The translations under genes and the position numbers were made by a program. From the NCBI GenBank assembly GCA_016699385.1, contig CP064974.1:339042-403041 (forward strand): a stretch of 64,000 bases of DNA, read 5' to 3'. Source of the DNA: Candidatus Moraniibacteriota bacterium (GTDB lineage Bacteria; Patescibacteriota; Minisyncoccia; Moranbacterales; UBA1568). Positions 9,737-63,552 of the stretch are shown here, in pieces. Below the pieces are notes generated by a model, which saw only the letters and a program-made list of their open reading frames with translations, did no database searches and was not told the origin of the DNA. Each line of letters starts with the position of its first letter. Position 1 is the first letter of the stretch.

Positions 9737-10510
9737 ATGGCAAAAGTAGTCACACTGGTTAATCAAAAAGGTGGGGTAGGGAAGACAACCTCGACCATCA
9801 ATATCGCCCGCTACCTCGCGGATTCTGGGAAGCGCGTGCTTCTTATCGATCTCGACCCACAGGCAAATGCTTCATCTGGCATTGGTGTTGATTCGCGATC
9901 GCTTGAGAAAACGCTCTATCATGCACTTCTTCTCGGTGAGCGACTCGAAAATGTTGTCCTTGCGACGCCGACTCCCAATCAGCATCTTTTGCCGTCATCG
10001 CAGGATTTGGCAGGGGCGGAAGTTGAAATGATGAATATCGAGGGGCGTGAATATCTTCTCTCGAAACTGGTCGCGCGTCTGCGACCGTACTATGACTATA
10101 TATTGATAGACAGTCCGCCGTCTCTCGGGCTTCTTACTGTGAATGGTCTCACGGCGAGTGATGAGGTGATTGTTCCTGTGCAGACCGAGTACTATGCGCT
10201 TGAGGGATTGAGCCAGCTCCTGTCAACGATCGACCTTGTGCGCGAGCGACTTCGCCCCGAGCTCAAAATAATGGGCGCGCTCCTCACTCTCTATGATCGC
10301 CGGAATCGCCTCGCGCGTCAGGTGGTGCAGGAGGTGACTGATCATTTCCCCGGACCCGTTTTCAAGAGCGTTATCCCGCGCTCCATTCGCCTCGCTGAGG
10401 CGCCGTCCTACGGCAAATCCATCCTCGATTTCGATGCTTTTTCGAAAGGCGCTCGTTCCTACAAAGCCGTCGTTCGAGAAATCATTGACCGCGAACGAGA
10501 GGATAAATAG
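9737..10510 (+). CDS. parA: ParA/Soj-family partition ATPase
   Basis: 257 aa with the deviant Walker A KGGVGKTT and ParA family motifs. No parB lies adjacent in this window. Confidence 0.85.
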   Translation: MAKVVTLVNQKGGVGKTTSTINIARYLADSGKRVLLIDLDPQANASSGIGVDSRSLEKTLYHALLLGERLENVVLATPTPNQHLLPSSQDLAGAEVEMMNIEGREYLLSKLVARLRPYYDYILIDSPPSLGLLTVNGLTASDEVIVPVQTEYYALEGLSQLLSTIDLVRERLRPELKIMGALLTLYDRRNRLARQVVQEVTDHFPGPVFKSVIPRSIRLAEAPSYGKSILDFDAFSKGARSYKAVVREIIDREREDK

Positions 10511-10715
10511 TTGCTTTTTTTGAGACTTTTTTCTTTTCAAGAATATTGATTCTCAGTGTGGTTCGGGATGTGATAAGCTCTAAAGAAACCTTGGAGAATC
10601 TTTGGAATTATATGTAAAAGACATCTTCTGTGGTTCCATGAATGTTCATAGTGACTCAGAGAAATTACTGTGCCAAAAGTGAAAGCAGTATCGGTAAATA
10701 CTCTTGCATAAAGAC

Positions 10716-13022
10716 ATGTTTCTCAAGCGGATTGAAATTTCGGGGTTTAAGTCGTTTGCGCGGAAAACCGTGCTGGAGTTTTCCGGTGCAAGCGGAGGGT
10801 TTCCGCTCACGGCTATCGTGGGACCAAATGGGTCGGGCAAGTCGAATGTTGCCGATGCGATACGCTGGACAATTGGCGAGCAATCGGCGAAACATCTGCG
10901 TGGCAAGAAAAGCGAAGACGTTATCTTTGCAGGGACGGGAACCAAGGCGCGTCTTGGGAGCGCATCTGTTTCGCTCTTCTTTGACAATAGTGACAAAAAG
11001 ATTCCGGTTGAATATGCGGAAGTCGTCATCACGCGAAGGCTCTTCCGAAATGGAGAGAGCGAATACCTTATCAATGGCGCTCGTGTGCGACTTCTCGACG
11101 TGACGGATTTACTTGCTCAGGCATCGATTGGTAAGGATAGCTACTCGGTTATCACACAGGGTATGTCGGACGCTGTGTTGTCGGCGACACCTTTGGAACG
11201 GCGCATGATGCTGGAGGAAGCGGCTGGCGTGAAGCAGTATCGTCTTGAGAAAGAACGCTCGCTCCGGAAATTGGAATCGACGCGGGAGAATCTCGTGCGT
11301 GTGGATGCGCTCCTCGTCGAGATAGAGCCGCATCTCAAGAATCTGAAGCGACAAGCGGAGAAAGCGTCGCGCGGTGCGGAAGTGGCAGAGAATTTGCGAG
11401 CAAAACAAACACAACGATTTGCGTTTTTGTGGCACACATTTGAGAAAGAGCGAAAAGAATTTGAAGGAAAGTTTGAGATAGAGTCTGCGCGCCTCCATGA
11501 ATTGGAGCAGCAATCGGAACGCATCAATCACGACCTTGTCGAAGAATCAAAACGCATCGAAGCTCCAACAAAGGATGGTAGTGAACAGAAGGTGCGAGCA
11601 TTGCGGGAGTCGCTCTACACGGTAGAACGAGATCTCTCGGTACTTCTCGGGAAGAGGGAAGTGGAAGAAGAGCGTCGCAAACCTCGTGAAGTCGTGGAGA
11701 GTGTCGCGGTTGATCGGGAATTTGTACAGAAACATCTTGCCGAAATTCGATCGCATCAAGAGAAGCTTATCGATCGGCTCTCGCATGTCGAGTCGCTTGA
11801 TGAGCTTCAGGAACTTCGCGAGTTGGCGCGCGTTATTCAAACGCGTCTCTCCGAATTGCATGGGCATGCCGGTGCCGGGACAGTGGTGACCAAGCACATG
11901 GTCGAGATTCCTGAGGAAGAGCTCGCAAAAAGCGATGAACGGCTCGATGCGCTTCGTACAGAGGAAACACGTCTCTCTGAAAAAAAGCGGTCACTCCAAG
12001 AGAAAATCACGGAGGAAGAGCGAGTCGCCGAAGAAGAACGACGACGTCTTGAGGAAAGTCGGCGGAAGTTCTTTGAGCTCGAACGAAAAGCGCGAGATAT
12101 GCAGATGGAAATGAATCGCCTGAAAGATGCCGAGAATGAACGCAAAGTGCGACGCGCCCGTGTTGAGGTTCGCGAGGAAGACTTGACTAAGGAGATTCTT
12201 GAGGAGCTTCGAATGAAACCCGAGGAACTCACATGGAATGGAGAAATTCTCGATGCGGAGAAATTTGAGCGTGATATTATCCGGCTCAAAGTGGAGCTCG
12301 AACATATTGGCGGTATCGACCCGATGGTAATCGAAGAATGTACGGAAACCGAAAAGCGTTTTGCTTTCCTCTCAACAGAGTCGGGAGATCTCAAAAAGGC
12401 GATGCAGTCGCTTCGTCAGGTGGTTCGAGAAATGGATACCAAGATTCATACTGCGTTTGAGATAGCTTGGAAAGAAGTGCATCGCGAGTTTGATCGATAT
12501 TTCAAAATTATTTTTGGCGGAGGCGAAGCGAAACTCTTGAAAATTCCCGTAGAGCGGCGCGGGAGCGCAGGTATATTTGAAGATGCTTCAGAAGAAAAGA
12601 ATGCTGATTTGTCTGATGATGGAGAAGTATCATTGAATCTAGAAAAGAATGAAATTGATATTGGTATCGATATCGTCGCATCGCCACCCGGGAAGAAAAT
12701 CGGGAATCTCGCCATGCTCTCGGGCGGGGAGCGATCGCTCACGGCGCTCGCACTTCTCTTTGCTATTATTTCACACAATCCGCCACCATTTGCCGTACTC
12801 GACGAAGTAGAAGCAGCGCTCGATGAGGCAAACTCAAAACGCTTCAGCGATCTCTTGTCCGAGCTGTCGGAGAGGACGCAGTTTGTCGCTATCACGCACA
12901 ACCGCGAGACAATGCGCCGCGCTTCTATCCTCTACGGTGTCACTATGGGAGATGATGGTATATCCAAAATTCTCTCTGTCCGCCTCGACCAAATTGGCAC
13001 TGGCGGAAAGATACGAGCGTAA
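10716..13022 (+). CDS. smc: SMC-family chromosome segregation ATPase (short, hinge-less form)
   Basis: N-terminal head (FKSF...GPNGSGKSN..DAIRW..GEQSAKHLRG), long coiled-coil, and C-terminal signature LSGGERSLTALALLFAI with Walker B DEVEAALD. The ORF opens at 10704, but the SMC consensus start (MFLKRIEISGFKSF) maps to the ATG at 10716. At ~770 aa it is far shorter than the canonical ~1180 aa. Confidence 0.8.
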   Translation: MFLKRIEISGFKSFARKTVLEFSGASGGFPLTAIVGPNGSGKSNVADAIRWTIGEQSAKHLRGKKSEDVIFAGTGTKARLGSASVSLFFDNSDKKIPVEYAEVVITRRLFRNGESEYLINGARVRLLDVTDLLAQASIGKDSYSVITQGMSDAVLSATPLERRMMLEEAAGVKQYRLEKERSLRKLESTRENLVRVDALLVEIEPHLKNLKRQAEKASRGAEVAENLRAKQTQRFAFLWHTFEKERKEFEGKFEIESARLHELEQQSERINHDLVEESKRIEAPTKDGSEQKVRALRESLYTVERDLSVLLGKREVEEERRKPREVVESVAVDREFVQKHLAEIRSHQEKLIDRLSHVESLDELQELRELARVIQTRLSELHGHAGAGTVVTKHMVEIPEEELAKSDERLDALRTEETRLSEKKRSLQEKITEEERVAEEERRRLEESRRKFFELERKARDMQMEMNRLKDAENERKVRRARVEVREEDLTKEILEELRMKPEELTWNGEILDAEKFERDIIRLKVELEHIGGIDPMVIEECTETEKRFAFLSTESGDLKKAMQSLRQVVREMDTKIHTAFEIAWKEVHREFDRYFKIIFGGGEAKLLKIPVERRGSAGIFEDASEEKNADLSDDGEVSLNLEKNEIDIGIDIVASPPGKKIGNLAMLSGGERSLTALALLFAIISHNPPPFAVLDEVEAALDEANSKRFSDLLSELSERTQFVAITHNRETMRRASILYGVTMGDDGISKILSVRLDQIGTGGKIRA

Positions 13023-35888: not shown

Positions 35889-36079
35889 AACTTGTTGTAT
35901 GAGCAAATCCTTCAAGGTTGCGCAATTGGGAGGCAAGGTGATATGAGCAAAAGCCAAAAGAGTTGCTGACGTTCATGGTTTGGGAGTGACGTGGATTATT
36001 CGCGATGTTGTTCTTGGTAACTGAAGCGTCATGGGAGGGAGGTACAATAAGAGAAGGCAAGAGAAGCTGTGTTTTTTCT

Positions 36080-36625
36080 ATGAATTATCGCCGAAAACAA
36101 TTGAGTGCAGAGGATATTGAGCCAGTACTGCTTCGAATACAGCCGTCTCCGAAATACGGTGGCATTGGAGTTTTTGCTCTCCGCGATATTAAAGGGGGTA
36201 CGATATTATGTGATGTTGAGAAAATTAGCGAGGAAGTTTTCGTCCCCTGGGAAGAATTTGCAAAGATAGATGCGGCTACGCGATCGTTTATGATTGATTT
36301 TTGTGCCGAGGACAAGGATGGTTTCTATAGCCCGATTGATCTGAACTATCTCACCATTCCGGGACACATGAATCATCACTGTGAGGCGAATGTAGGATGT
36401 GATGCGGACGATAACTTCGTCGCAATACGAGATATCAAGAGGGGAGAAGAAGTGTGTCTTGATTACGCCTTCGTTATATCCAACCCTGCCTATACTATGA
36501 AATGCGCATGTGATTCCAAGAAATGTCGAGGGATAGTCACAGGAAATGACTGGAAAAACCCCGCCTTCCGGAAAAAGAATTCCAATTTTCTCTCATCAAA
36601 TGTGAGGAAATTTGCAAACAAATAA
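36080..36625 (+). CDS. SET-domain protein (putative protein-lysine methyltransferase) with post-SET Cys cluster
   Basis: Contains NHHCEAN (NHSCxPN-type), EEVCLDY (ELxxDY-type) and the post-SET cluster CACDSKKC. The ORF opens at 36005, but the likely start is the ATG at 36080. Confidence 0.7.
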   Translation: MNYRRKQLSAEDIEPVLLRIQPSPKYGGIGVFALRDIKGGTILCDVEKISEEVFVPWEEFAKIDAATRSFMIDFCAEDKDGFYSPIDLNYLTIPGHMNHHCEANVGCDADDNFVAIRDIKRGEEVCLDYAFVISNPAYTMKCACDSKKCRGIVTGNDWKNPAFRKKNSNFLSSNVRKFANK

Positions 36626-38386: not shown

Positions 38387-39476
38387 ATGAATGATATTCG
38401 GAATGAGATGGAAACGATGACTCAGAAACTCCTGCATCTGCGGGACTCTCTTTGATGTGGCGGGGAAGTCACAAAGAATTGTTGAGCTGGAGAGAGTGTC
38501 GCAGGCGGAGAATTTCTGGGGGGATGCGCAGGAAGCGGGGCGCGTGATGAAAGAACTTGAGAGGCTTCGCGAGGAGCGCGCGCTTTTCGATCGACTCTCG
38601 AAAGAGCTCGACGATATCCGAGAGCTTTCTGCGATGGAACTCGAGGGGCAGGAAGCAGAGGATGTCGCGTCGCAGTATACGCGGGTTTCCGAGGAAATTG
38701 AGGCGCTCGAGTTCAAGACGCGTCTTGGTGGTCCATATGACAGTCACGATGCTATACTTGCTATCAAGAGTGGCGCGGGCGGTGTGGATGCACAAGACTG
38801 GGCGGAAATGCTCCTTCGCATGTATCTGCGATGGGCAGAACGTCGAGGATTTGTCGCGAGTGTTTTCGAAGAGTCGAGAGGAAACGAGGCGGGTATCAAG
38901 AGTGTGTCGGTCAAGATAGAAGGAGAATACGCATTTGGGTATCTTCGCAGTGAAATGGGTACCCATCGATTGGTCAGACTCTCTCCGTTTAATGCAGACA
39001 ATTTGCGGCAGACGTCGTTTGCCTCGGTGGAAGTTCTGCCGGTTCTCTCGGCGAAAGAGGGAACAGAGATAAAGCCGGAGGATCTCGAGGTGGATACCTA
39101 TCGATCGTCCGGTGCGGGCGGGCAAAATGTCAACAAGACCGAAACCGCTGTCCGTATCCGACATGTTCCGACGGGTATCGTGGTGTCGTGTCAGACCGAG
39201 CGTTCGCAATTGCAAAATCGTGAGAATGCTCTCACTATGCTTCGCGCCAAACTCGAACAGCTGAGACTCCAGGAGGAAGAAGATGAAAAACGCGCGCTTC
39301 GCGGTGAACAGAAAAGTGCCGACTTTGGAAGTCAGATTCGCTCTTATGTCTTGCATCCTTACACGTTGGTCAAGGATCACCGGACGAAATATGAAACACC
39401 GCAAGTGCACGAAGTTCTCGATGGCAAACTTGATGAATTTATGGAAGCCTTTCTTAAGACACAGAGTAGGGAATAA
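38387..39476 (+). CDS. prfB: Peptide chain release factor 2 with programmed +1 ribosomal frameshift
   Basis: ORF 1 (ATG 38387) encodes [22 protein letters not shown] and ends at the in-frame UGA in CTT TGA T (38450-38456). A +1 shift continues into the long RF2 ORF ([13 protein letters not shown]...), which carries the SPF tripeptide (RLSPFN) and GGQ (SGAGGQ). Confidence 0.85.
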
Positions 39477-56351: not shown

Positions 56352-58046
56352 CTATTTCTCCGTGACAAGTGCGTCTGGGTTTGCGTCTTTGGAGAAGGTG
56401 ACGGAATCTTGGGTGAAGGTGCTTTCGTGAATGTCGATGTCTTTTGAAGAGGGGCCTGAAATGACGAGGCAATCTTTGCGGGCGAGGGGGCATCTCGTGT
56501 TCTTGAAGGTGATAGCTGAACTGTTGGCGATATCGAAGACAGAGCCTTTTGTCGGGACGGCGGAAATGGTATCAAATGTGAGAGAATTTGCCTCCTCTAT
56601 CTGGGAGCCCCATTTGGCGAATATTTTGATGTTTTTGAAAGTGATATCGGTAATTGGCTGTTCGATGAGTCCGCTGATTTCTATTGAGCGGTCGGTTTTC
56701 CCGACAGTCATGTTTTCTACATGGATATTGCGGAAAAGGGGGATGGCACCGACACCTTTGATGAAAGAGTTCTCATAGGAAGTAGTGAGCTGGATAGCAG
56801 CGATGGAGGCATAGTCTATCTTGATTCCATCTGCGTAAATGTTTTCAACGATACCACCACGACCTTTTGATGATTTGATGCGAAAGCCGTATTGTACCAT
56901 GTTTGCCGAGAGATTTTCGATGAAAACATTGCGTACATCGCCGGACATCTCACTGCCAATCGCGACGGCGGCATGTGCCTCGAGTATGGAATTATTGCGT
57001 ATGAGGACGTGCTCGGCGGGCATTCGGACACGGAGACCATCTCGGTTTCTGCCGGATTTGAGGACGATGGCATCGTCGCCCGTGCTAAAGACACTGTTTT
57101 CGATGAGGACGTTTTGGGAGGAGTCGAGGGCGACGCCGTCAGTGCTTTGTCCCTCGCTGGTTTCGATATGGACGCCGCGAACAATGATGTTTTTGCTATA
57201 GAGGGGATGAATCGTCCACATGGGACCGTTTTGTATGCTTACCCCTTCTACGAGCACGCGATCACAATTCATAAACTCTATGAATGCTGGGCGCAGAGAA
57301 TCCTTGACTGTTCCGAAGACGCGCTCGGATACGGGGGTGCCGTCATCTCCCATTTGGTAGAGTCTTTTGATGGGCTTGTCCCAGTTGCGCATCGCAGCCC
57401 ACCAGGCAGCTCCTTGACCATCAAGCGTGCCTTCGCCGGTGATAGCCACATTGAAGGCGTTTGCGGTGTAGATGGGCGCTGAGTAGTTGTAGTATTCGAT
57501 GCCTTCGAATCGGGAGAAGACTGCTGGCAAGTATTCTTCGAAGTTGGTGCTAAAGAGAATAGTCGAGCCTTTCTCGAGATGAAGATTGATATTGCTTGCG
57601 AGATGTATAGGACCGGTAAACCAGGTGCCGGGAGGCACGATCACAGTTCCACCGCCAGTACGGGCGCAATCGTCTATTGTTTTCCGAAAGGCTTCTGTAT
57701 TGGAAGTGACACCATCGCTTATGGCGCCATAGTCGACAATCGAGCAGGTATGCTCAGGAAAGCCAACTTCCTCAAGAGTAAATGATGCACCGGAGAGGGT
57801 TTTGAGCGTTGCGACAGATGTCGGGGGTGGGATGAGCTTGGATATATCTGGAAATTCACGAGGAATTTCGGGCGCTTCCACAGAATCAGTATTCTCTGGG
57901 GAAATTTTTTTGGTAAAGACTGTCGATGAGGAACTCAATTCGCGAAGCTGCTCTCCGTAAAGAGTCCATACTCCGAAGAGTACGCTGATAACAAGTCCCC
58001 CCAGAAGGATGAGTATCAATGGCATGCGAAAATTCCCTCGAGGCAT
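56352..58046 (-). CDS. Membrane-anchored glycoside hydrolase family 28-like (polygalacturonase-type) beta-helix protein
   Basis: N-terminal TM anchor. GH28 signature blocks STDG, GDDAIVLKSG (GDDCIAIKSG-type), AIGSEMSG (G.SIGSE-type) and FRIKSSKGRGG (RIK). Confidence 0.7.
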   Translation of the reverse strand: MPRGNFRMPLILILLGGLVISVLFGVWTLYGEQLRELSSSSTVFTKKISPENTDSVEAPEIPREFPDISKLIPPPTSVATLKTLSGASFTLEEVGFPEHTCSIVDYGAISDGVTSNTEAFRKTIDDCARTGGGTVIVPPGTWFTGPIHLASNINLHLEKGSTILFSTNFEEYLPAVFSRFEGIEYYNYSAPIYTANAFNVAITGEGTLDGQGAAWWAAMRNWDKPIKRLYQMGDDGTPVSERVFGTVKDSLRPAFIEFMNCDRVLVEGVSIQNGPMWTIHPLYSKNIIVRGVHIETSEGQSTDGVALDSSQNVLIENSVFSTGDDAIVLKSGRNRDGLRVRMPAEHVLIRNNSILEAHAAVAIGSEMSGDVRNVFIENLSANMVQYGFRIKSSKGRGGIVENIYADGIKIDYASIAAIQLTTSYENSFIKGVGAIPLFRNIHVENMTVGKTDRSIEISGLIEQPITDITFKNIKIFAKWGSQIEEANSLTFDTISAVPTKGSVFDIANSSAITFKNTRCPLARKDCLVISGPSSKDIDIHESTFTQDSVTFSKDANPDALVTEK

Positions 58047-58066
58047 AGCGGAGAGTGTTTCAAAAT

Positions 58067-59923
58067 TTATTCTGATGAAGTTTCTCGGAGAAAGAGTTGT
58101 TCGCTAGGGATGACTTTGACAAAGTTGTCCAATCGATTTCCAATTGTGAATGTATTCGCGGTTTCGTCTGTTTCGTAGGCTTTCTTGAAATCGAGCGGGT
58201 CGCTTCCGGGATGAGAGAGCTTGAGTGTTCTTGATCGACGCCCCGAGGAAACGACGACATAGTCGACGTGAAGATTGCGCAAATCTTTCTGACTGAGACC
58301 CGTGCGACATTCTCCGATAAAGGCAGCGCAGACCGCTCCCTTGTCCGACCAGATGCTGATATCGCGTGGATTGGGAAGATGATTGAGGAAGTCAGCTGCT
58401 TCCCAGCTTCCATCGCCCATGTCCTTGAGATTGACGAAATAGGGTTTTGGGAGAAGTGATGAGGTGTAAGCGAAATAGAATGGTTTGACAGAAAGAAGGC
58501 TGATGTAGGATATGGCAAGAATGATAAGGATAGCTACGAGGGGGGAGAGATATTTTCGGAGTCGCTCTGAAGAGAGGAGGAAGGAAATGCCGATTGCCGA
58601 AAGAATAAACGCGAAAGGGAAAAGAGTTATCTGATATCTGACGGTGGCAATAACATGATTGACGGTTGAGGCGGTGTAGTAGAGGAGTATGAAGATTACG
58701 AGAAAGAAGGCGATTTTGGTTTCTCTTGAATCGATATGTTTTTTCATCATACCCATGACGAGTGTCGCCATGAGCGCCACAAGTGCAAGTGGCGAGATGC
58801 CAAACATAAGGCTGTAGAGATCGGCAACAATATTGTCAGCAAAGATAAAAAGTCGGGAATCATCTCCTCCGGAGCCTTTCGGAGAGGCAAGAGAAGCATC
58901 GGTGCTAAAGATGCTCATGCCACTCAGAGTGTTGAATGCCACAAAAAGAAGGGCGATGATGAGTATGCCGAATGCAACGCGAATAAATAGTATGCGATAT
59001 TTCGAGAGCGTATTGAGGATGAATGATGTTACGGTGTTCTTGAAGAGAAGAGCATCAGCGACGATGAGGGTGATGAGTCCGGCAAAGAGCGGCCACGTAC
59101 TTGCGAAAGCCTTACTGAGAAATGTCCCTTCGAGAATCATTTCGGGGTGCTTCCATGTTGCTGGAAAGAGGGCGAAAAATGTTGCCAAGGAGATAGCGAC
59201 GAGTAAAAAGTAGTGTATTGCGGAGCGCTTCAAATAGGCTCGCATGTCTGGCTTGTCCTTGGAGAGAATGTATTCTAGGAAAGGGAGGACAAAGAAAAAT
59301 ATATAGAGAATATTGGCGACGTATTTGGTGAGGAGTGAAAGCCCGAGGAAGATACCGCTTGTGTAGAGGTACTTTTTCTCAGCATTCTTCTGAAAGACGA
59401 AATAGCTCAACACGGACAGCGGGAGAAATATCCAAAGGAGTGAGTCGGGATTGATGATGAGGGAGATGCCGAGGAGTATCGGAGAGAGTCCGATGAAGAC
59501 GAAGGCAACAAGGGCGGTTGTTTCATCGAATAATTTTTTGAGAAAAATATAGAAAAGTGGAAGAGAGATGAGGCAAAATAGGAAAATCGGAAGACGAAAG
59601 AAAAAGTTGATGTCATTGATGGCGCGAAGCTCTTCATCTGTCTTCACATCATCGCGGAGACTTTTGTAAGGAAGTGGGTCGATCTTCAGGAGTCCGGCGC
59701 CGGAGAGAATAGCGGTAGTGATGCCAGGCTTGTCATTGATATTGGTCGAACGCCATTTTCCCTCAGCGATAGCCTTCCAGAATTTTGGCGTTCGCCCGTA
59801 TGTCCAGTAAGGTTCATCGACGGCAGAGTAGGATTCGAGACGCAGGAGCCCGAGCGAGAGATTGATGGCAAGTACTGCGGTGATAATAAATGGTGCAATG
59901 TATCTTTTGTAGGATATTTTCAT
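58067..59923 (-). CDS. PMT/ArnT-family (GT39/GT83-like) lipid-carrier-dependent glycosyltransferase
   Basis: 618 aa with ~12 TM helices. The N-terminal DE-containing first-loop region and overall topology match GT-C mannosyl/arabinosyl transferases. Confidence 0.6.
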   Translation of the reverse strand: MKISYKRYIAPFIITAVLAINLSLGLLRLESYSAVDEPYWTYGRTPKFWKAIAEGKWRSTNINDKPGITTAILSGAGLLKIDPLPYKSLRDDVKTDEELRAINDINFFFRLPIFLFCLISLPLFYIFLKKLFDETTALVAFVFIGLSPILLGISLIINPDSLLWIFLPLSVLSYFVFQKNAEKKYLYTSGIFLGLSLLTKYVANILYIFFFVLPFLEYILSKDKPDMRAYLKRSAIHYFLLVAISLATFFALFPATWKHPEMILEGTFLSKAFASTWPLFAGLITLIVADALLFKNTVTSFILNTLSKYRILFIRVAFGILIIALLFVAFNTLSGMSIFSTDASLASPKGSGGDDSRLFIFADNIVADLYSLMFGISPLALVALMATLVMGMMKKHIDSRETKIAFFLVIFILLYYTASTVNHVIATVRYQITLFPFAFILSAIGISFLLSSERLRKYLSPLVAILIILAISYISLLSVKPFYFAYTSSLLPKPYFVNLKDMGDGSWEAADFLNHLPNPRDISIWSDKGAVCAAFIGECRTGLSQKDLRNLHVDYVVVSSGRRSRTLKLSHPGSDPLDFKKAYETDETANTFTIGNRLDNFVKVIPSEQLFLRETSSE

Positions 59924-60123
59924 GGGAATAATACAAAAAATGTATCTTTCAACAGCGATTTTATGATACAGGAAATGAAGAGGTTTGCAAAGAAGACATG
60001 GCTTGTAGAGAGCATTATCGCTTTACGAAGAGCGCTTGGAGGTGATAGAATACCCCATGGTATTATAGTATTGAATCGAGTACTCTCTGTCCAAAAGAGC
60101 ATGAGCTTATACGCAAAGCCTTT

Positions 60124-61887
60124 ATGAATATTCTAACGAAACATTGGGGAATTTTTGCTTTGCTTACTATTCTGGCTGGAGCGATTTTTGTGCGGACGTA
60201 TTCCTTGGATACCTGGCTCTACTTCAAGATGGATCAATCGAGAGATGCGCTCCTTATGACGGAAGTACTCGAAAATGGACCGAGCGCTTTGCCGCTTCTT
60301 GGTCCCCGAGTTGGCGCGGTGGCACTCCAGCACGGATTTCTGCGGCTTGGTCCGATTTACTACTATTTCCAATATCTATCGGGCATTCTCTTTCATTCAT
60401 CGGAACCAGTAGTCTTCGCCTACCCGGATGTATTTTTCTCGATTGCCGCCATTCCACTGCTCTATCTCTTTGCTCGGCTCTATTTCGAAAAGCGTCTCGC
60501 TTTGATGATTACCGCGATGTATGCGTTTTCATTTCTTATCATTCAGTACTCCCGATTTGCTTGGAATCCAAATTCACTGCAATTTTTTATTCTTCTGAGT
60601 TTCTACGGACTTTTGCGATTTTTGAATGAGAGTCGCCCCGCGCCGAAACGCTGGTGGCTCGCGCTCTGGGCAGTGGGGAGTGCTATCGGTTCACAACTGC
60701 ACTTCTTCGGTTTCTTCAGTTTGCTCGGCATTTCTGGACTTCTGATACTTTTCCATTTGCGCATTTGGGAGAAAGCCTCATGGAGGACGTTTGTTCAGAA
60801 AGAATCTCTTCGGCAGTTCGCGGTGTTTTCCGTTATTGTCCTCGGAGTATTCGCTGTGTTTTATACGCCGGTTATCATCAGCGATAGTCTTCGTGGCGGT
60901 GAAAACACGAGGAATTTCTTCGAAGCGCTTGGCTCAAAGGCGGAGAAAAAACCGTTTATCGAAAAACTACAGAAAACTGTGACGGAGAATCTGAAGTATT
61001 CCTGTCTTCTCATGACATCGGAATGTTATTCTGGTGACGTAGGGGATAATATTCCGATGGTGAGTTTGACGGGCATTCTTCTTTTTATGGGTGTGATGCT
61101 CGCGATTCGCGGCGTGCGAAATGAAAAGAACACTCTTCGTCGAGATTTCCTCGTGCTCATTCTCTTGTGGCTTGGTGTTTTCATTGTTCTCACAGAGCCG
61201 GTTTCTTTTCAGCTTCGCCCGCGCTTTTATATCGTCATCTTTGCTGTGCCATTTCTGCTTCTGGGCGTTCTTTTCACCTTCATCGAGGAGCGTTTCGGAA
61301 AGCGAGCGATTCTCGTGTCATCATTCATGACGCTTGGCATTGTCGCGCTCAATGCGCATGGAACATGGCTCTGGTTTGCAGAGCAAGCAAAAGCGCAAAC
61401 AAAAGCCGTCGCCGTGAAACGAACACTCATCTTGAAAACCAAAGACGGCGTGACGCTCGGGCAATTGCGTGGAGTAGCTGAATGGATATACGTGCGGATG
61501 AAGCCGGAGAATACCCTCTATTACTATGTCAAACCAGAACATCAACGCCCGATAAAATTTCTTTTGCTCTCGCAGCGGGACGCATCGCTTCGCATTGAAT
61601 TACTCAAAATGAATGGCGATCCGCACGCGCAGTTTTTTGCTATCACGCCTGCGAAGAATGGGAAAAAAGGCATTGCCAATAAATTGAAGCGTCCGGAGAC
61701 GGAATTCACGGTTCTTGAATCGAAGCAATTTGGCGAGCTTTTGGTCTCGGAAGTTGAATTTCCTTCTCGGAGTATTTCTGAGAGTTTCAAATACAAAGGA
61801 GGAAGTGGTGATAAAGCGGATCGGGAAGGAGAGAGTGACCGCAGTTATTGGAAGGATGTTTTTCCAACGACTTCTTCTAAGAAATAA
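60124..61887 (+). CDS. PMT/ArnT-family GT-C glycosyltransferase, tandem paralog 1
   Basis: 587 aa. Shares the N-terminal pattern FVRTY..D.WL.F..DQSRDA...LPLLGP..G with the two downstream ORFs. Confidence 0.6.
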   Translation: MNILTKHWGIFALLTILAGAIFVRTYSLDTWLYFKMDQSRDALLMTEVLENGPSALPLLGPRVGAVALQHGFLRLGPIYYYFQYLSGILFHSSEPVVFAYPDVFFSIAAIPLLYLFARLYFEKRLALMITAMYAFSFLIIQYSRFAWNPNSLQFFILLSFYGLLRFLNESRPAPKRWWLALWAVGSAIGSQLHFFGFFSLLGISGLLILFHLRIWEKASWRTFVQKESLRQFAVFSVIVLGVFAVFYTPVIISDSLRGGENTRNFFEALGSKAEKKPFIEKLQKTVTENLKYSCLLMTSECYSGDVGDNIPMVSLTGILLFMGVMLAIRGVRNEKNTLRRDFLVLILLWLGVFIVLTEPVSFQLRPRFYIVIFAVPFLLLGVLFTFIEERFGKRAILVSSFMTLGIVALNAHGTWLWFAEQAKAQTKAVAVKRTLILKTKDGVTLGQLRGVAEWIYVRMKPENTLYYYVKPEHQRPIKFLLLSQRDASLRIELLKMNGDPHAQFFAITPAKNGKKGIANKLKRPETEFTVLESKQFGELLVSEVEFPSRSISESFKYKGGSGDKADREGESDRSYWKDVFPTTSSKK

Positions 61888-61896
61888 AGAAAGTGC

Positions 61897-63552
61897 ATGA
61901 AACAGTGGATAGACTTCAGACTGAATCATCCCTCTTCTTGGTGGAGAAGTCCTCTTTTTCGGATTTCTTTGTCGCTCTTTGTGATTCTCGCAGTTGGGAT
62001 ATTCGTCCGTACGTACCATTTTCACGAATGGCTTCACTTCGGGTCGGATCAAGCAAGAGATGTGATGCTGGTGGGGGATGTGATAGAGGGGAAAGAACCT
62101 TTGCCACTCCTTGGCATGGAGGCGGGGAATACCCGATTCGACCTCGGTCCGGCGTACTACTATTTCCAGATATCATCCGCAAAACTCTTTGGTGTTCGTC
62201 CTGAAACCATGGCGTATCCAGATGTCCTGCTTTCGATACTGGCAATTCCACTCGCCTTCTTTCTTTTTCGCAAGCTCTTTGATATACGTCTCTCCCTTGC
62301 ACTTACAGGGCTCTATGCGATTTCCTTTTACGTTGTCGAATACTCTCGATTTGCATGGAATCCCAATGCAATTCCGTTTTTTGTGGGGCTTTTTTTGTTG
62401 TCCCTGACTGAATTCATGGAAGCGGAGGAAATGACTAGGTGGCAGTGGATATTGGCGCTCGGCATCGCTATCGGCATCGGGATACAATTGCATACTATTC
62501 TTTTGTTTCTATTTCCTGCGATACTCGTAGGCATCTTCCTTCTCTTCTTGAAGAAAAATTCCGGCGTGGTGTTGCGTCTTTTGAGTATCATTGTCATTGT
62601 GCTGACACTCAATATTCCGCAGATACTGAGTGAGGTGCACACTCATGGGAAAAATACGAAGCTTTTTTTGAAAGCATTCACTGATCGATCGGAAAGTAGT
62701 AGCGCGCAATTTACAGAAAGTCTTGAAACAGATATTCTCTGTCATGCGCAGGCAAATTCGCATATACTTTCGGCATTGGGACATCATGGAAATTGCAATT
62801 TTCTCTTGCTTCTCGAACATCCTGAGAGGTTTCTCGATATTTCTTCGCTGATTCTCTCGTATGGCGGGATTGTACTCAGTGTTTTATTTTCTCTCATTGG
62901 CTATTCATTGCTGGCATATCTCGCATTCAAAGAATCCGATCCAAGACGGAAAAAATTTTTGATTGTTGTGCTGATATATGTGGGACTATCATTTGCCATT
63001 CTTTTTTCCGTCATTCGTGGAGCGCCACTTCGCTACTTCATTTACGCAACCTATATCCCATTCATACTCTTTGGATTAATCCTTGTTCAAATCCGGAAGT
63101 ATCTTCCGAATTGTTCTCGCGGTATTATTGTGGGCGCGCTCGTTGTATCTGCGCTCTTGAATATACGAGCGATAGGGAGGGAAGCATTGCAGCTTGCAAC
63201 GGGAACGCGTGGAGACTCTGGGTTTGTTGTGCTGGGCGAGGCAGAGCGAATGGTTGCGTATATGAAGGAACGATCCGAACCATGGACGGAGGCAAATCTC
63301 GCAGGCGGGACAGCGTATTTCTCAACCTATTACAAGTCGCTCAAGTATGTCGCGGCGCAAGAGGGTCTCGATATCCACCTTGCCAAGCGGAAACGCCCTC
63401 CAGTATCCGAACTCCCGTATTTCCTCATCTACAAACCATTTGACCAAAGAGAGCCTTCCTTTGCAAAAGGATACGATGTGCTCGATCATCGTGACTTCGG
63501 ACAGATAGGCATCTATCAGTTGCGCAGTGTACAATATCGGACTTCAGAATAA
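61897..63552 (+). CDS. PMT/ArnT-family GT-C glycosyltransferase, tandem paralog 2
   Basis: 551 aa, clearly paralogous to 60124..61887 (FVRTYHFHEWLHFGSDQARDV...AYPDVLLSILAIPL). Confidence 0.6.
   Translation: MKQWIDFRLNHPSSWWRSPLFRISLSLFVILAVGIFVRTYHFHEWLHFGSDQARDVMLVGDVIEGKEPLPLLGMEAGNTRFDLGPAYYYFQISSAKLFGVRPETMAYPDVLLSILAIPLAFFLFRKLFDIRLSLALTGLYAISFYVVEYSRFAWNPNAIPFFVGLFLLSLTEFMEAEEMTRWQWILALGIAIGIGIQLHTILLFLFPAILVGIFLLFLKKNSGVVLRLLSIIVIVLTLNIPQILSEVHTHGKNTKLFLKAFTDRSESSSAQFTESLETDILCHAQANSHILSALGHHGNCNFLLLLEHPERFLDISSLILSYGGIVLSVLFSLIGYSLLAYLAFKESDPRRKKFLIVVLIYVGLSFAILFSVIRGAPLRYFIYATYIPFILFGLILVQIRKYLPNCSRGIIVGALVVSALLNIRAIGREALQLATGTRGDSGFVVLGEAERMVAYMKERSEPWTEANLAGGTAYFSTYYKSLKYVAAQEGLDIHLAKRKRPPVSELPYFLIYKPFDQREPSFAKGYDVLDHRDFGQIGIYQLRSVQYRTSE

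Follow-up and report, generated by a model that had tools for sequence, protein, structure and literature searches.

The DNA analysed here (the window, a stretch of 64 kb from a Candidatus Moraniibacteriota bacterium) contains the gene order parA-smc-lysS-serS. The smc open reading frame, found at 10716..13022 on the forward (+) strand in the ORF list, encodes 768 aa plus a stop codon when counted from its ATG, and its product is in all likelihood a hinge-less miniature Smc. An alternative in-frame TTG start at 10704 would give a 772-aa protein; position 10716 is the likely start, because in the alignment the N-terminus MFLKRIEISGFKSF matches that of B. subtilis Smc MFLKRLDVIGFKSF residue for residue. 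The Pfam SMC_N model matches the product at 7.5e-69 over aa 2-750, and the whole-protein score against TIGR02168 (SMC_prok_B, NCBIfam) is 645.7 bits, above the trusted equivalog cutoff of 567.35. The best sequence matches in the PDB are the Smc heads of B. subtilis and Geobacillus (5e-109), with 48% identity to B. subtilis Smc over head aa 1-204. Directly upstream of smc lies a parA/soj-like ATPase gene (9737..10510, +; AAA_31 5e-64, CbiA 6.7e-29), considered here as context only; the parA-smc order recurs in another fetched locus, L083. The earlier note had remarked that this parA has no parB beside it, and indeed neither a ParB box motif (regular-expression scan) nor a parS site with up to three mismatches was found in the 64-kb window. 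A Pfam scan of 30 ORFs in the window showed no ScpA, ScpB or ParB, and ScpB and ParB were also unseen in regular-expression scans of the window and all fetched loci. An ScpA pattern gave zero matches in ~2.35 Mb of fetched loci, a result that, obtained without a positive control, means only that ScpA is not encoded adjacent to smc. Elsewhere in the window, the classical prfB frameshift motif CTTTGAC is absent near 38457.

The canonical SMC head motifs that the earlier note had read at both termini could all be located. The N-terminal half of the ATPase head (aa 1-172, 10716..11231, +), delimited by motifs, by alignment to 5xg3/3zgx and by 84-98% column identity in the family, carries the Walker A motif GPNGSGKS (aa 36-43, 10821-10844) and the Q-loop (aa 145-150, 11148-11165). 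The C-terminal half (aa 601-768, 12516..13019, +), assigned by motifs, alignment to Smc heads and family conservation, carries the signature LSGGERSL (aa 668-675, 12717-12740), the Walker B/D-loop PFAVLDEVEAALD (aa 691-703, 12786-12824), the H-loop ITHNR (aa 726-730, 12891-12905) and the C-terminal cap strands of the head (12930-12986), all on the + strand. Throughout the 88 family sequences the catalytic motifs of the head are invariant. The C-terminal lobe also contains an acidic insertion of ~35 residues (aa 612-646, 12549..12653, +; 11 D/E against 4 K/R), recognised from pLDDT, composition and the family alignment, where B. subtilis Smc has merely a short loop; it is gappy and variable across the family and probably disordered, as its predicted pLDDT falls below 50 at aa 616-645.

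The coiled coil, likewise noticed earlier, is borne out by the AF2 model. The N-terminal arm helix (aa 173-323, 11232..11684, +) comprises predicted helices at 173-218, 220-282 and 288-319, is colinear with canonical Smc residues 1-320, begins with a strongly conserved neck (aa 173-220) and carries an invariant G312-K-x-E-x-E-x-E motif (11649-11672, +). The C-terminal arm helix (aa 400-600, 11913..12515, +) comprises predicted helices at 400-498, 514-532 and 538-600, aligns to residues 686-910 of the canonical homologue L038, and is interrupted by a joint discontinuity between helices at aa 499-537 (12210-12326, +). The top Foldseek match is 5xei (5e-32), described as 'Smc head with coiled coil and joint'. 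A long intramolecular coiled coil, antiparallel and with its joint close to the head, is a trait of bacterial Smc and is present in the model (173-319 and 400-600). Colinearity with canonical Smc extends over the head, the neck and cap regions that bind kleisin, the joint and the ~150 residues of antiparallel coiled coil nearest the head. Family identity reaches 79-91% in the neck (aa 171-220) and 82-89% in the C-terminal cap strands, as would be expected if a kleisin partner has been retained.

The hinge is regarded as a defining and essential part of Smc, cohesin and condensin, where it supplies the stable interface of the dimer, and roles as a DNA-binding site and as a DNA entry gate have been proposed for it. 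A recent paper proposes it in addition as a selective gate for obstacle bypass (PMC12647877). The earlier note had found no recognisable hinge in this protein and had pointed to PF06470 as the model to search with. In a Pfam scan PF06470 gave zero matches in the 768-aa Smc even at E<=1, while the same scan detected the hinge in the positive controls L038 (1.1e-24) and L056 (1.8e-19). A local hinge HMM built on 53 canonical SMCs, which matches every SMC of at least 1100 aa, returned nothing for it even with filters switched off and a limit of E<=10. When the centre (aa 310-410) was compared with the hinge profile by hhalign, the probability was 0.1%, and the fold search with Foldseek did not reveal a hinge either. 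Sequence, profile and fold searches agree, and not even a degenerate hinge was detected. The shortfall of ~400 aa that had been noticed is accurate (768 aa against 1180-1200 aa in canonical proteins), and it can be mapped: residues 1-329 correspond to 1-320 of L038 and residues 401-615 to its 686-910, so that what is missing is the distal arm and hinge, which amount to 365-515 residues in canonical relatives.

The centre of the protein is not featureless but holds a conserved module of ~75 aa that is better conserved than the arms. This apex cap (aa 324-399, 11685..11912, +), delimited by AF2 models and column conservation, is predicted to be a strand (324-331, 11685-11708), two helices (334-356, 11715-11783; 361-387, 11796-11876), an AGxG turn (aa 385-388) and a second strand (389-396, 11880-11903), i.e. 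two extended segments flanking a 50-residue helical hairpin, bracketed by conserved Pro/Gly (prolines P331 and P399). Column conservation is 0.6-0.76 in the cap and 0.41-0.57 in the arms. The earlier statement that the centre shows no glycine motifs of a hinge is not quite accurate, since the AGxG motif is conserved, with A385, G386 and G388 retained in 91-95% of the family. Q348, R354, E359, Q365 and E369 are among the invariant or near-invariant polar residues, and each cap helix has nine hydrophobic positions, more than a two-helix hairpin needs. An apex-only AF2 model has a pLDDT of 86.7, its strands reaching only 71-77 (moderate). The cap is a real, selected element, given its conservation above the arms, its invariant polar residues, this pLDDT and its recurrence on longer arms, where it is recognisable in a class of ~880 aa. 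It is mildly acidic (mean net charge -1.8) and probably does not take over the DNA-binding role ascribed to the hinge. By Foldseek the cap had no significant match in the PDB; its likeness to the prefoldin beta subunit (1fxk_A, 11% identity) is a structural analogy only, prefoldin having neither a helical hairpin between the strands nor an ATPase. The central sequence quoted in the earlier note corresponds to aa 379-401, and its His residues are not conserved; a metal-binding H-G-H at this place was rejected, the positions being D, E or K in most relatives. No Cys/His metal site was found in the cap, the apex of this protein being without Cys.

Hinge-less Smc is by no means confined to this genome. 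It occurs across a large part of Patescibacteria and falls into discrete length classes, the taxonomic spread being that of a sample among the matches listed and not a census. The same architecture is seen in at least 120 Candidatus Moranbacteria homologues with lengths of 745-794 aa, and none has a hinge; the named source of the closest homologues listed is Candidatus Moranbacteria/Moraniibacteriota. The hinge is also missing from at least about 150 other clusters (50% identity; 715-1088 aa), Saccharibacteria and Uhrbacteria included, the length groups listed being 700-800, 800-950 and, with four members, 950-1100 aa. An HMM of the apex matches 31 of 152 other hinge-less SMCs (E<1e-3) and 0 of 66 hinge-bearing ones, the 152 being proteins of 700-1100 aa that gave no hinge match and do not belong to the close family; most of them represent 50%-identity clusters, and the others are SMCs from fetched loci. 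Because this narrow HMM recognises only ~20% of the other hinge-less SMCs, a single origin of the cap throughout Patescibacteria is at most tentative.

Hinge-less SMCs as such are already known, and the Patescibacteria version appears to be new: full-text searches of the literature turned up no account of hinge-less SMC in Patescibacteria, the sole related report being that of Sussfeld et al. (2025, Environ Microbiome, PMC12153180). The hinge-less SMCs described there belong to an oceanic clade assigned to Actinomycetes, are monophyletic and abundant, and are apparently the sole SMC of their genomes. [quoted passage not shown] An apex module is not described in that report, nor are CPR SMCs mentioned, even though its data set included CPR seeds (PMC12153180). 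Compared with bacterial Smc (TIGR02168; B. subtilis Smc, PDB 5xg3/3zgx/5h68), the Moranbacteria protein has in common the head motifs, neck, joint, antiparallel arm and rnc-smc-rpsP neighbourhood; it differs in having the 75-residue strand-helix-helix-strand cap where bacterial Smc has the PF06470 hinge, and in an arm of ~150 residues, less than half of the ~340 in bacterial Smc. Natural Smc arm lengths have modes at 238, 341 and 515 aa and minor modes at 163 and 423, and in engineered Mini-Smc proteins with shortened arms only certain arm lengths were functional (Burmann et al., 2017, Mol Cell, PMC5344682). The natural hinge-less proteins are like Mini-Smc in their discrete arm lengths, but Mini-Smc retains the hinge.

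The gene neighbourhood bears on which SMC this is. The gene rnc lies immediately upstream of smc in 19 of 34 hinge-less loci (median -375 nt), nusB, rpmF, rnhB and dnaE are likewise conserved near hinge-less smc, and rpsP is found downstream in L081, L083 and L084; rnc-smc ... rpsP is also what we take to be the gene order of B. subtilis. Judged from sequence and gene order, the 768-aa protein is the syntenic orthologue of chromosomal bacterial smc and, because of this ancestral rnc-smc-rpsP neighbourhood, not a paralogue of the Sph, ASRP, Rad50 or RecN-like kind. As regards identity and architecture alone, we are highly confident that a Candidatus Moranbacteria (Patescibacteria/CPR) bacterium here has its chromosomal Smc in a naturally miniaturised form without a hinge. 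The earlier comparison with Sph-like proteins fails as a matter of membership: ASRP (NF045487) and haloarchaeal Sph1/2 are also short, hinge-less and SMC-like, but the score against NF045487 is 46.9 bits (cutoff 300), and ASRP/Sph are paralogues that coexist with a canonical SMC, whereas the gene described here is the syntenic smc orthologue.

The other identities that could be given to this gene are much less probable, to differing degrees. Arms joined by something far smaller than an Smc hinge are also found in Rad50/SbcC, with its zinc hook, in RecN and in MukB, with its small hinge. That the protein has changed its job, from organising the chromosome to Rad50/SbcC- or RecN-like tethering or repair of DNA ends, we regard as improbable: the scores do not place the head with Rad50 or RecN (TIGR00634, RecN, 36.4 bits against a cutoff of 407.85; Rad50 models 21-28 bits against cutoffs of 700-1000), CXXC is absent and any apex Cys occurs in only 1 of 88 sequences, no Mre11/SbcD-type gene adjoins smc in the loci inspected, and the housekeeping rnc-smc-rpsP position is kept. 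No MukB/MksB matches were obtained for the protein. An SMC-like ATPase of a defence system, namely Lamassu LmuB or MADS mad3, is more improbable still; mad3 does score 200.8 bits, but over the head only (aa 419-757, with a profile of 374 positions) and compared with 645.7 bits for Smc, LmuB scores 41.9 bits, and the neighbours of smc are housekeeping genes (ribosomal and tRNA-synthetase) whose conservation extends across a phylum, with defence partners absent next to it. Membership in Sph/ASRP, RecN, Rad50 or defence families was thus rejected by scores and context. Least probable, and practically negligible, is that the hinge-less gene is an artefact of assembly or gene calling (through loss of an internal piece or the joining of two fragments), a caveat raised in the earlier note: the reading frame is continuous, the length and architecture recur in over 250 sequences obtained independently (NCBI, ENA, JGI and Logan assemblies), some of them on contigs as long as 767 kb, the hundreds of assemblies that reproduce the architecture contain no N runs or gaps, and the junction region is the best conserved part of the protein's middle. 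This possibility was rejected on the homologue counts and long contigs.

How the apex works divides the remaining readings. Taking the statement whole, with the mechanism included, we lean moderately towards a chromosomal Smc homodimer that is closed at the cap, forms a ring or rod with a kleisin and organises the chromosome. The hinge would have been lost or replaced early in Patescibacteria, arm length settling afterwards into discrete classes. By analogy with every other SMC-like protein, two protomers would be held together at the apex cap, the likely cap-cap contacts being a pairing between extended segments, a four-helix bundle packed from the hairpins, or both; the heads would engage on ATP, and a kleisin would bridge neck and cap, with ScpA/ScpB as presumed partners, to give a closed ring or rod. 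The predicted dimensions are ~22 nm for the arms and ~6 nm for the cap, compared with ~50 nm in B. subtilis, and the complex would organise and segregate a chromosome of roughly 1 Mb in the manner of Smc-ScpAB. The rival reading, in which the apex does not join the protomers and dimers form only via ATP-engaged heads, the kleisin or both, the short arms serving as levers or as a closed rod and DNA being clamped on the heads and not entrapped in a ring, seems to us unlikely, if less so than a changed job. It agrees with the finding that the protein has neither a hinge nor a zinc hook nor any further known device for dimerisation, and with the self-contained, confidently predicted fold of the cap in the monomer model, and the extra hydrophobic positions could pack in cis against the two strands. 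Against it, to our knowledge, all SMC-like proteins characterised so far (Smc, MukB, Rad50, RecN) have their arms joined at the apex; the cap exceeds the arms in conservation and has many invariant exposed polar residues, as is typical of an interface. The discrete arm-length classes moreover suggest a geometric constraint between two ends, an argument made by Burmann et al. (2017; PMC5344682).

We consider it an evenly balanced proposition that much of Patescibacteria/CPR organises its chromosome with a hinge-less Smc whose arms, of two or three discrete lengths, are closed by an undescribed strand-helix-helix-strand cap. If that is the case, the hinge is no universal requirement for SMC function, and stable dimerisation, DNA binding and the entry or bypass gate either can be dispensed with or are taken over by a module of 75 residues. 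A conserved, syntenic Smc orthologue without a hinge, found in hundreds of sequence clusters and in several lineages of Patescibacteria, amounts to a natural experiment on which roles of the hinge are indispensable. With it, the quantised arm lengths of SMC proteins (PMC5344682) extend to proteins without a hinge. Such proteins would represent naturally minimal SMCs, of a size that permits structural work at full length, and an SMC of 768 residues with predicted arms of ~22 nm should be far easier to study as a whole protein than one of 1200 residues. NCBI pipelines name the hinge-less Smc homologues 'AAA family ATPase', and for this reason the chromosome-segregation gene content of CPR genomes is probably under-annotated.

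The smc ORF (10716-13022, plus strand) encodes a protein of 768 aa counted from its ATG, hereafter the query. An in-frame TTG four codons 5' of this ATG (10716) is unlikely to be the start, since the ATG product, which begins MFLKRIEISGFKSF, lines up with B. subtilis Smc (MFLKRLDVIGFKSF) from its first residue on. The only Pfam matches of the query are SMC_N (7.5e-69, aa 2-750) and generic P-loop families, and it scores 645.7 bits against the bacterial Smc equivalog TIGR02168 (NCBIfam; trusted cutoff 567.35). NCBI labels its homologues 'AAA family ATPase'. The query has the Walker A, Q-loop, signature, Walker B/D-loop and H-loop motifs, each of them invariant in a family alignment of 88 sequences, in agreement with the canonical SMC heads described in an earlier note on this DNA, and column identity reaches 79-91% in the neck and 82-89% in the C-terminal cap strands of the head. 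In the full-length AlphaFold2 model (pLDDT 76), N-arm helices (aa 173-319) and a C-arm helix (aa 400-498) stand on either side of the centre, so that the coiled coil is also present as had been noted; a joint (aa 499-537), a further helix (aa 538-600) and, after aa 600, the C-terminal head lobe follow. These data show an intact Smc ATPase head with conserved neck and C-terminal cap strands, a joint and a short antiparallel arm. The head lobe contains an acidic insertion (window 12549-12653, aa 612-646; 11 D/E vs 4 K/R) that is disordered in the model (pLDDT <50 at aa 616-645) and lies between the GGG and PPGKK strands; its length varies across the family, whereas B. subtilis Smc has merely a short loop at this site. 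Similar acidic stretches occur in other short Patescibacteria SMCs (loci L003, L007 and L009).

The absence of the hinge from the query is real. The Pfam search for SMC_hinge (PF06470) suggested in the earlier note gave no match in the query even at E<=1, nor in eight other short or medium Patescibacteria SMCs, and the same scan found the hinge in two positive controls, a 1035-aa Anaerolineae SMC (1e-24) and a 1182-aa SMC (2e-19). A local hinge HMM, made from 53 canonical SMCs out of the fetched loci, matches every SMC of at least 1100 aa and, among database proteins of 700-950 aa, none of ~270; for the query it gave no match at E<=10 with filters off. When the family centre (aa 310-410) was compared with the hinge as profile against profile, the probability was 0.1%, and a fold search likewise detected no hinge. 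With all four approaches negative, the description of an SMC lacking a recognisable hinge was essentially right.

An assembly artefact or a one-genome oddity is ruled out, as homologues from four assembly sources (NCBI, ENA, JGI and Logan; contigs up to 767 kb) have the same architecture. The 120 best homologues (54-99% identity to the query) measure 745-794 aa, except for one 423-aa fragment; none carries a precomputed hinge domain, and the named sources among them are Candidatus Moranbacteria/Moraniibacteriota. The 150 top-ranking representatives of 50%-identity clusters (P0121-P0270) fall into groups of 715-790, 843-915 and ~1000-1090 aa. By the local hinge HMM the hinge is missing from all members of the first two groups and from four proteins of the third (1039-1088 aa), and the lengths of hinge-less SMCs peak at 740-770 and 870-900 aa. 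Among the matches listed, species-representative genomes with a short hinge-less SMC include several Saccharibacteria, 'Patescibacteria group' and Uhrbacteria, and the closest hinge-bearing relatives are ~1000-1060 aa long (37-46% identity; one from Anaerolineae). Judged from these matches, which are a sample and not a census, the trait appears to be phylum-wide and to come in quantised arm lengths.

The earlier note had likened the protein to archaeal Sph-like proteins. This kinship is contradicted both by the NCBIfam models, among which ASRP, like archaeal-type SMC_prok_A, RecN and Rad50, is far under cutoff, and by the gene order of the relatives, rpmF-nusB-rnc-smc-...-rpsP, which is the context of an smc orthologue; the query is the orthologous Smc and not a Sph-like paralogue. 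In B. subtilis the order is rnc-smc-ftsY ... ffh-rpsP. In 19 of 34 hinge-less loci the gene next upstream encodes RNase III (median distance 375 nt), and nusB (19/34), rnhB (12/34) and dnaE (9/34) also occur nearby. In one Moranbacteria lineage a small ORF without Pfam match, absent from the window, lies between rnc and smc (L081:9564-9809, 81 aa; L082:1343-1636, 97 aa). In the window and in L083, a 73%-identical relative, the rnc set is replaced by response regulator-uppP-folD-(tRNA-Leu)-parA, with the parA/soj-like gene next to smc (9737-10510 in the window, 205 nt short of the smc start); in more distant relatives rnc takes this place. That parA lacks an adjacent parB was confirmed, with neither a ParB box motif nor a parS-like site (3 mismatches at most) anywhere in the 64-kb window. 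ScpA, ScpB and ParB were not found in the window, and a motif scan of the fetched loci, run without positive control, saw none of the three.

Although a hinge is indeed undetectable in the centre of the query, this region is not empty, and conservation and models both identify it as a conserved cap, which has no significant Foldseek match in the PDB. Aligned through the family HMM, query 1-329 corresponds to residues 1-320 of L038, a short-armed hinge-bearing relative, and query 401-615 to its residues 686-910; by these alignment limits 365 residues of L038 are represented by ~75 in the query. For the 1182-aa L056, whose C-terminal match starts at residue 847 (query 412), an estimated ~515 residues are replaced. 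AlphaFold2 predicts a strand (aa 324-331), two helices (aa 334-356 and 361-387) and a second strand (aa 389-396), and a separate model of aa 285-435 gives the same order (pLDDT 86.7). The interruptions are supported by the sequence, since conserved P331 (84%), P399 (89%), G386 (91%) and G388 (93%) flank the non-helical segments. Mean column identity is 0.6-0.76 in the cap vs 0.41-0.57 in the arms, with V332, V337, Q348, L351 and A371 invariant and the polar residues R354, E359, Q365 and E369 nearly so. A zinc hook, like any other metal site, is excluded because the cap is essentially free of Cys and the His residues quoted in the earlier note are not conserved. At E<1e-3, a cap-only HMM recognises 14 of 78 other short SMCs without a hinge, 17 of the 70 members of the ~880-aa class and none of 66 hinge-bearing SMCs. 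In the ~880-aa class (L025, P0141, P0207) an extra 85-110 residues in all are divided between the two sides of the conserved helical hairpin; these proteins therefore have the same tip on longer arms, and SMCs lacking a hinge, too, seem to have quantised arm lengths.

We infer that the cap may be the dimerisation device of this Smc, because to our knowledge every characterised SMC-like protein has its arms joined at the apex, because the cap is more strongly constrained than the arms, and because ~nine conserved hydrophobic positions per cap helix exceed the need of a two-helix hairpin. The nearest coil-strand geometry is that of prefoldin, whose oligomer is built from such strands, and this also argues for the role. 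Two Smc protomers would then be joined through the apical cap, with a kleisin closing the ring as a possible further element. Since the cap is slightly acidic, the DNA binding attributed to the hinge is improbable for it. The ~147 helical residues of the query arm correspond to a calculated ~22 nm, plus ~6 nm for the cap; for B. subtilis Smc, PMC5344682 and PMC5526789 give 47-49 nm.

The arms of natural SMCs have several preferred lengths, mainly 238, 341 and 515 aa and less often 163 and 423, and engineered Mini-Smc works only at certain lengths (Burmann et al., 2017, PMC5344682). The ~750, ~880 and ~1045-aa classes fit this idea, with steps of ~60-80 residues per arm; since arms were delimited in that survey by the head and the hinge, hinge-less proteins were unmeasurable in it. 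The hinge-less concept has one recent precedent in a different lineage: an abundant oceanic clade assigned to Actinomycetes, without CXXC and without co-occurring canonical SMC, presented as new biology (Sussfeld et al., 2025, PMC12153180), in which neither CPR proteins nor an apical module are mentioned. Our full-text literature search found no description of hinge-less SMC in Patescibacteria, whose Smc offers a natural test of hinge function. An 810-aa SMC of 'bacterium isolate SIF170217_bin_338' (L012:10001-12433; 50% identity to the query head, arm rich in lysine/glutamate), also negative with the hinge HMM, could be related to the oceanic clade or be a further independent case.

Elsewhere in the window, a 1521-aa ORF (46463-51028, minus strand) matches Pfam at its C-terminal end alone, with the 'putative glucoamylase' domain (PF10091, 1.5e-16), its first ~1270 residues having no match at E<=1e-5. 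A cluster at 56352-63552, with a GH28/beta-helix protein, two PMT-family (dolichyl-phosphate-mannose type) membrane glycosyltransferases and one ORF of similar size, fits the cell-surface glycosylation typical of small-genome bacteria. The start of a release factor gene (38457-39476, plus strand; PCRF and RF-1 domains, GTG start, PCRF domain from residue 5) is uncertain because no classical CTTTGAC frameshift site lies nearby. A bacterial SET-domain protein (36005-36625, plus strand; PF00856, 2e-11) is encoded among small NUDIX, CYTH and Ham1 nucleotide-housekeeping genes.
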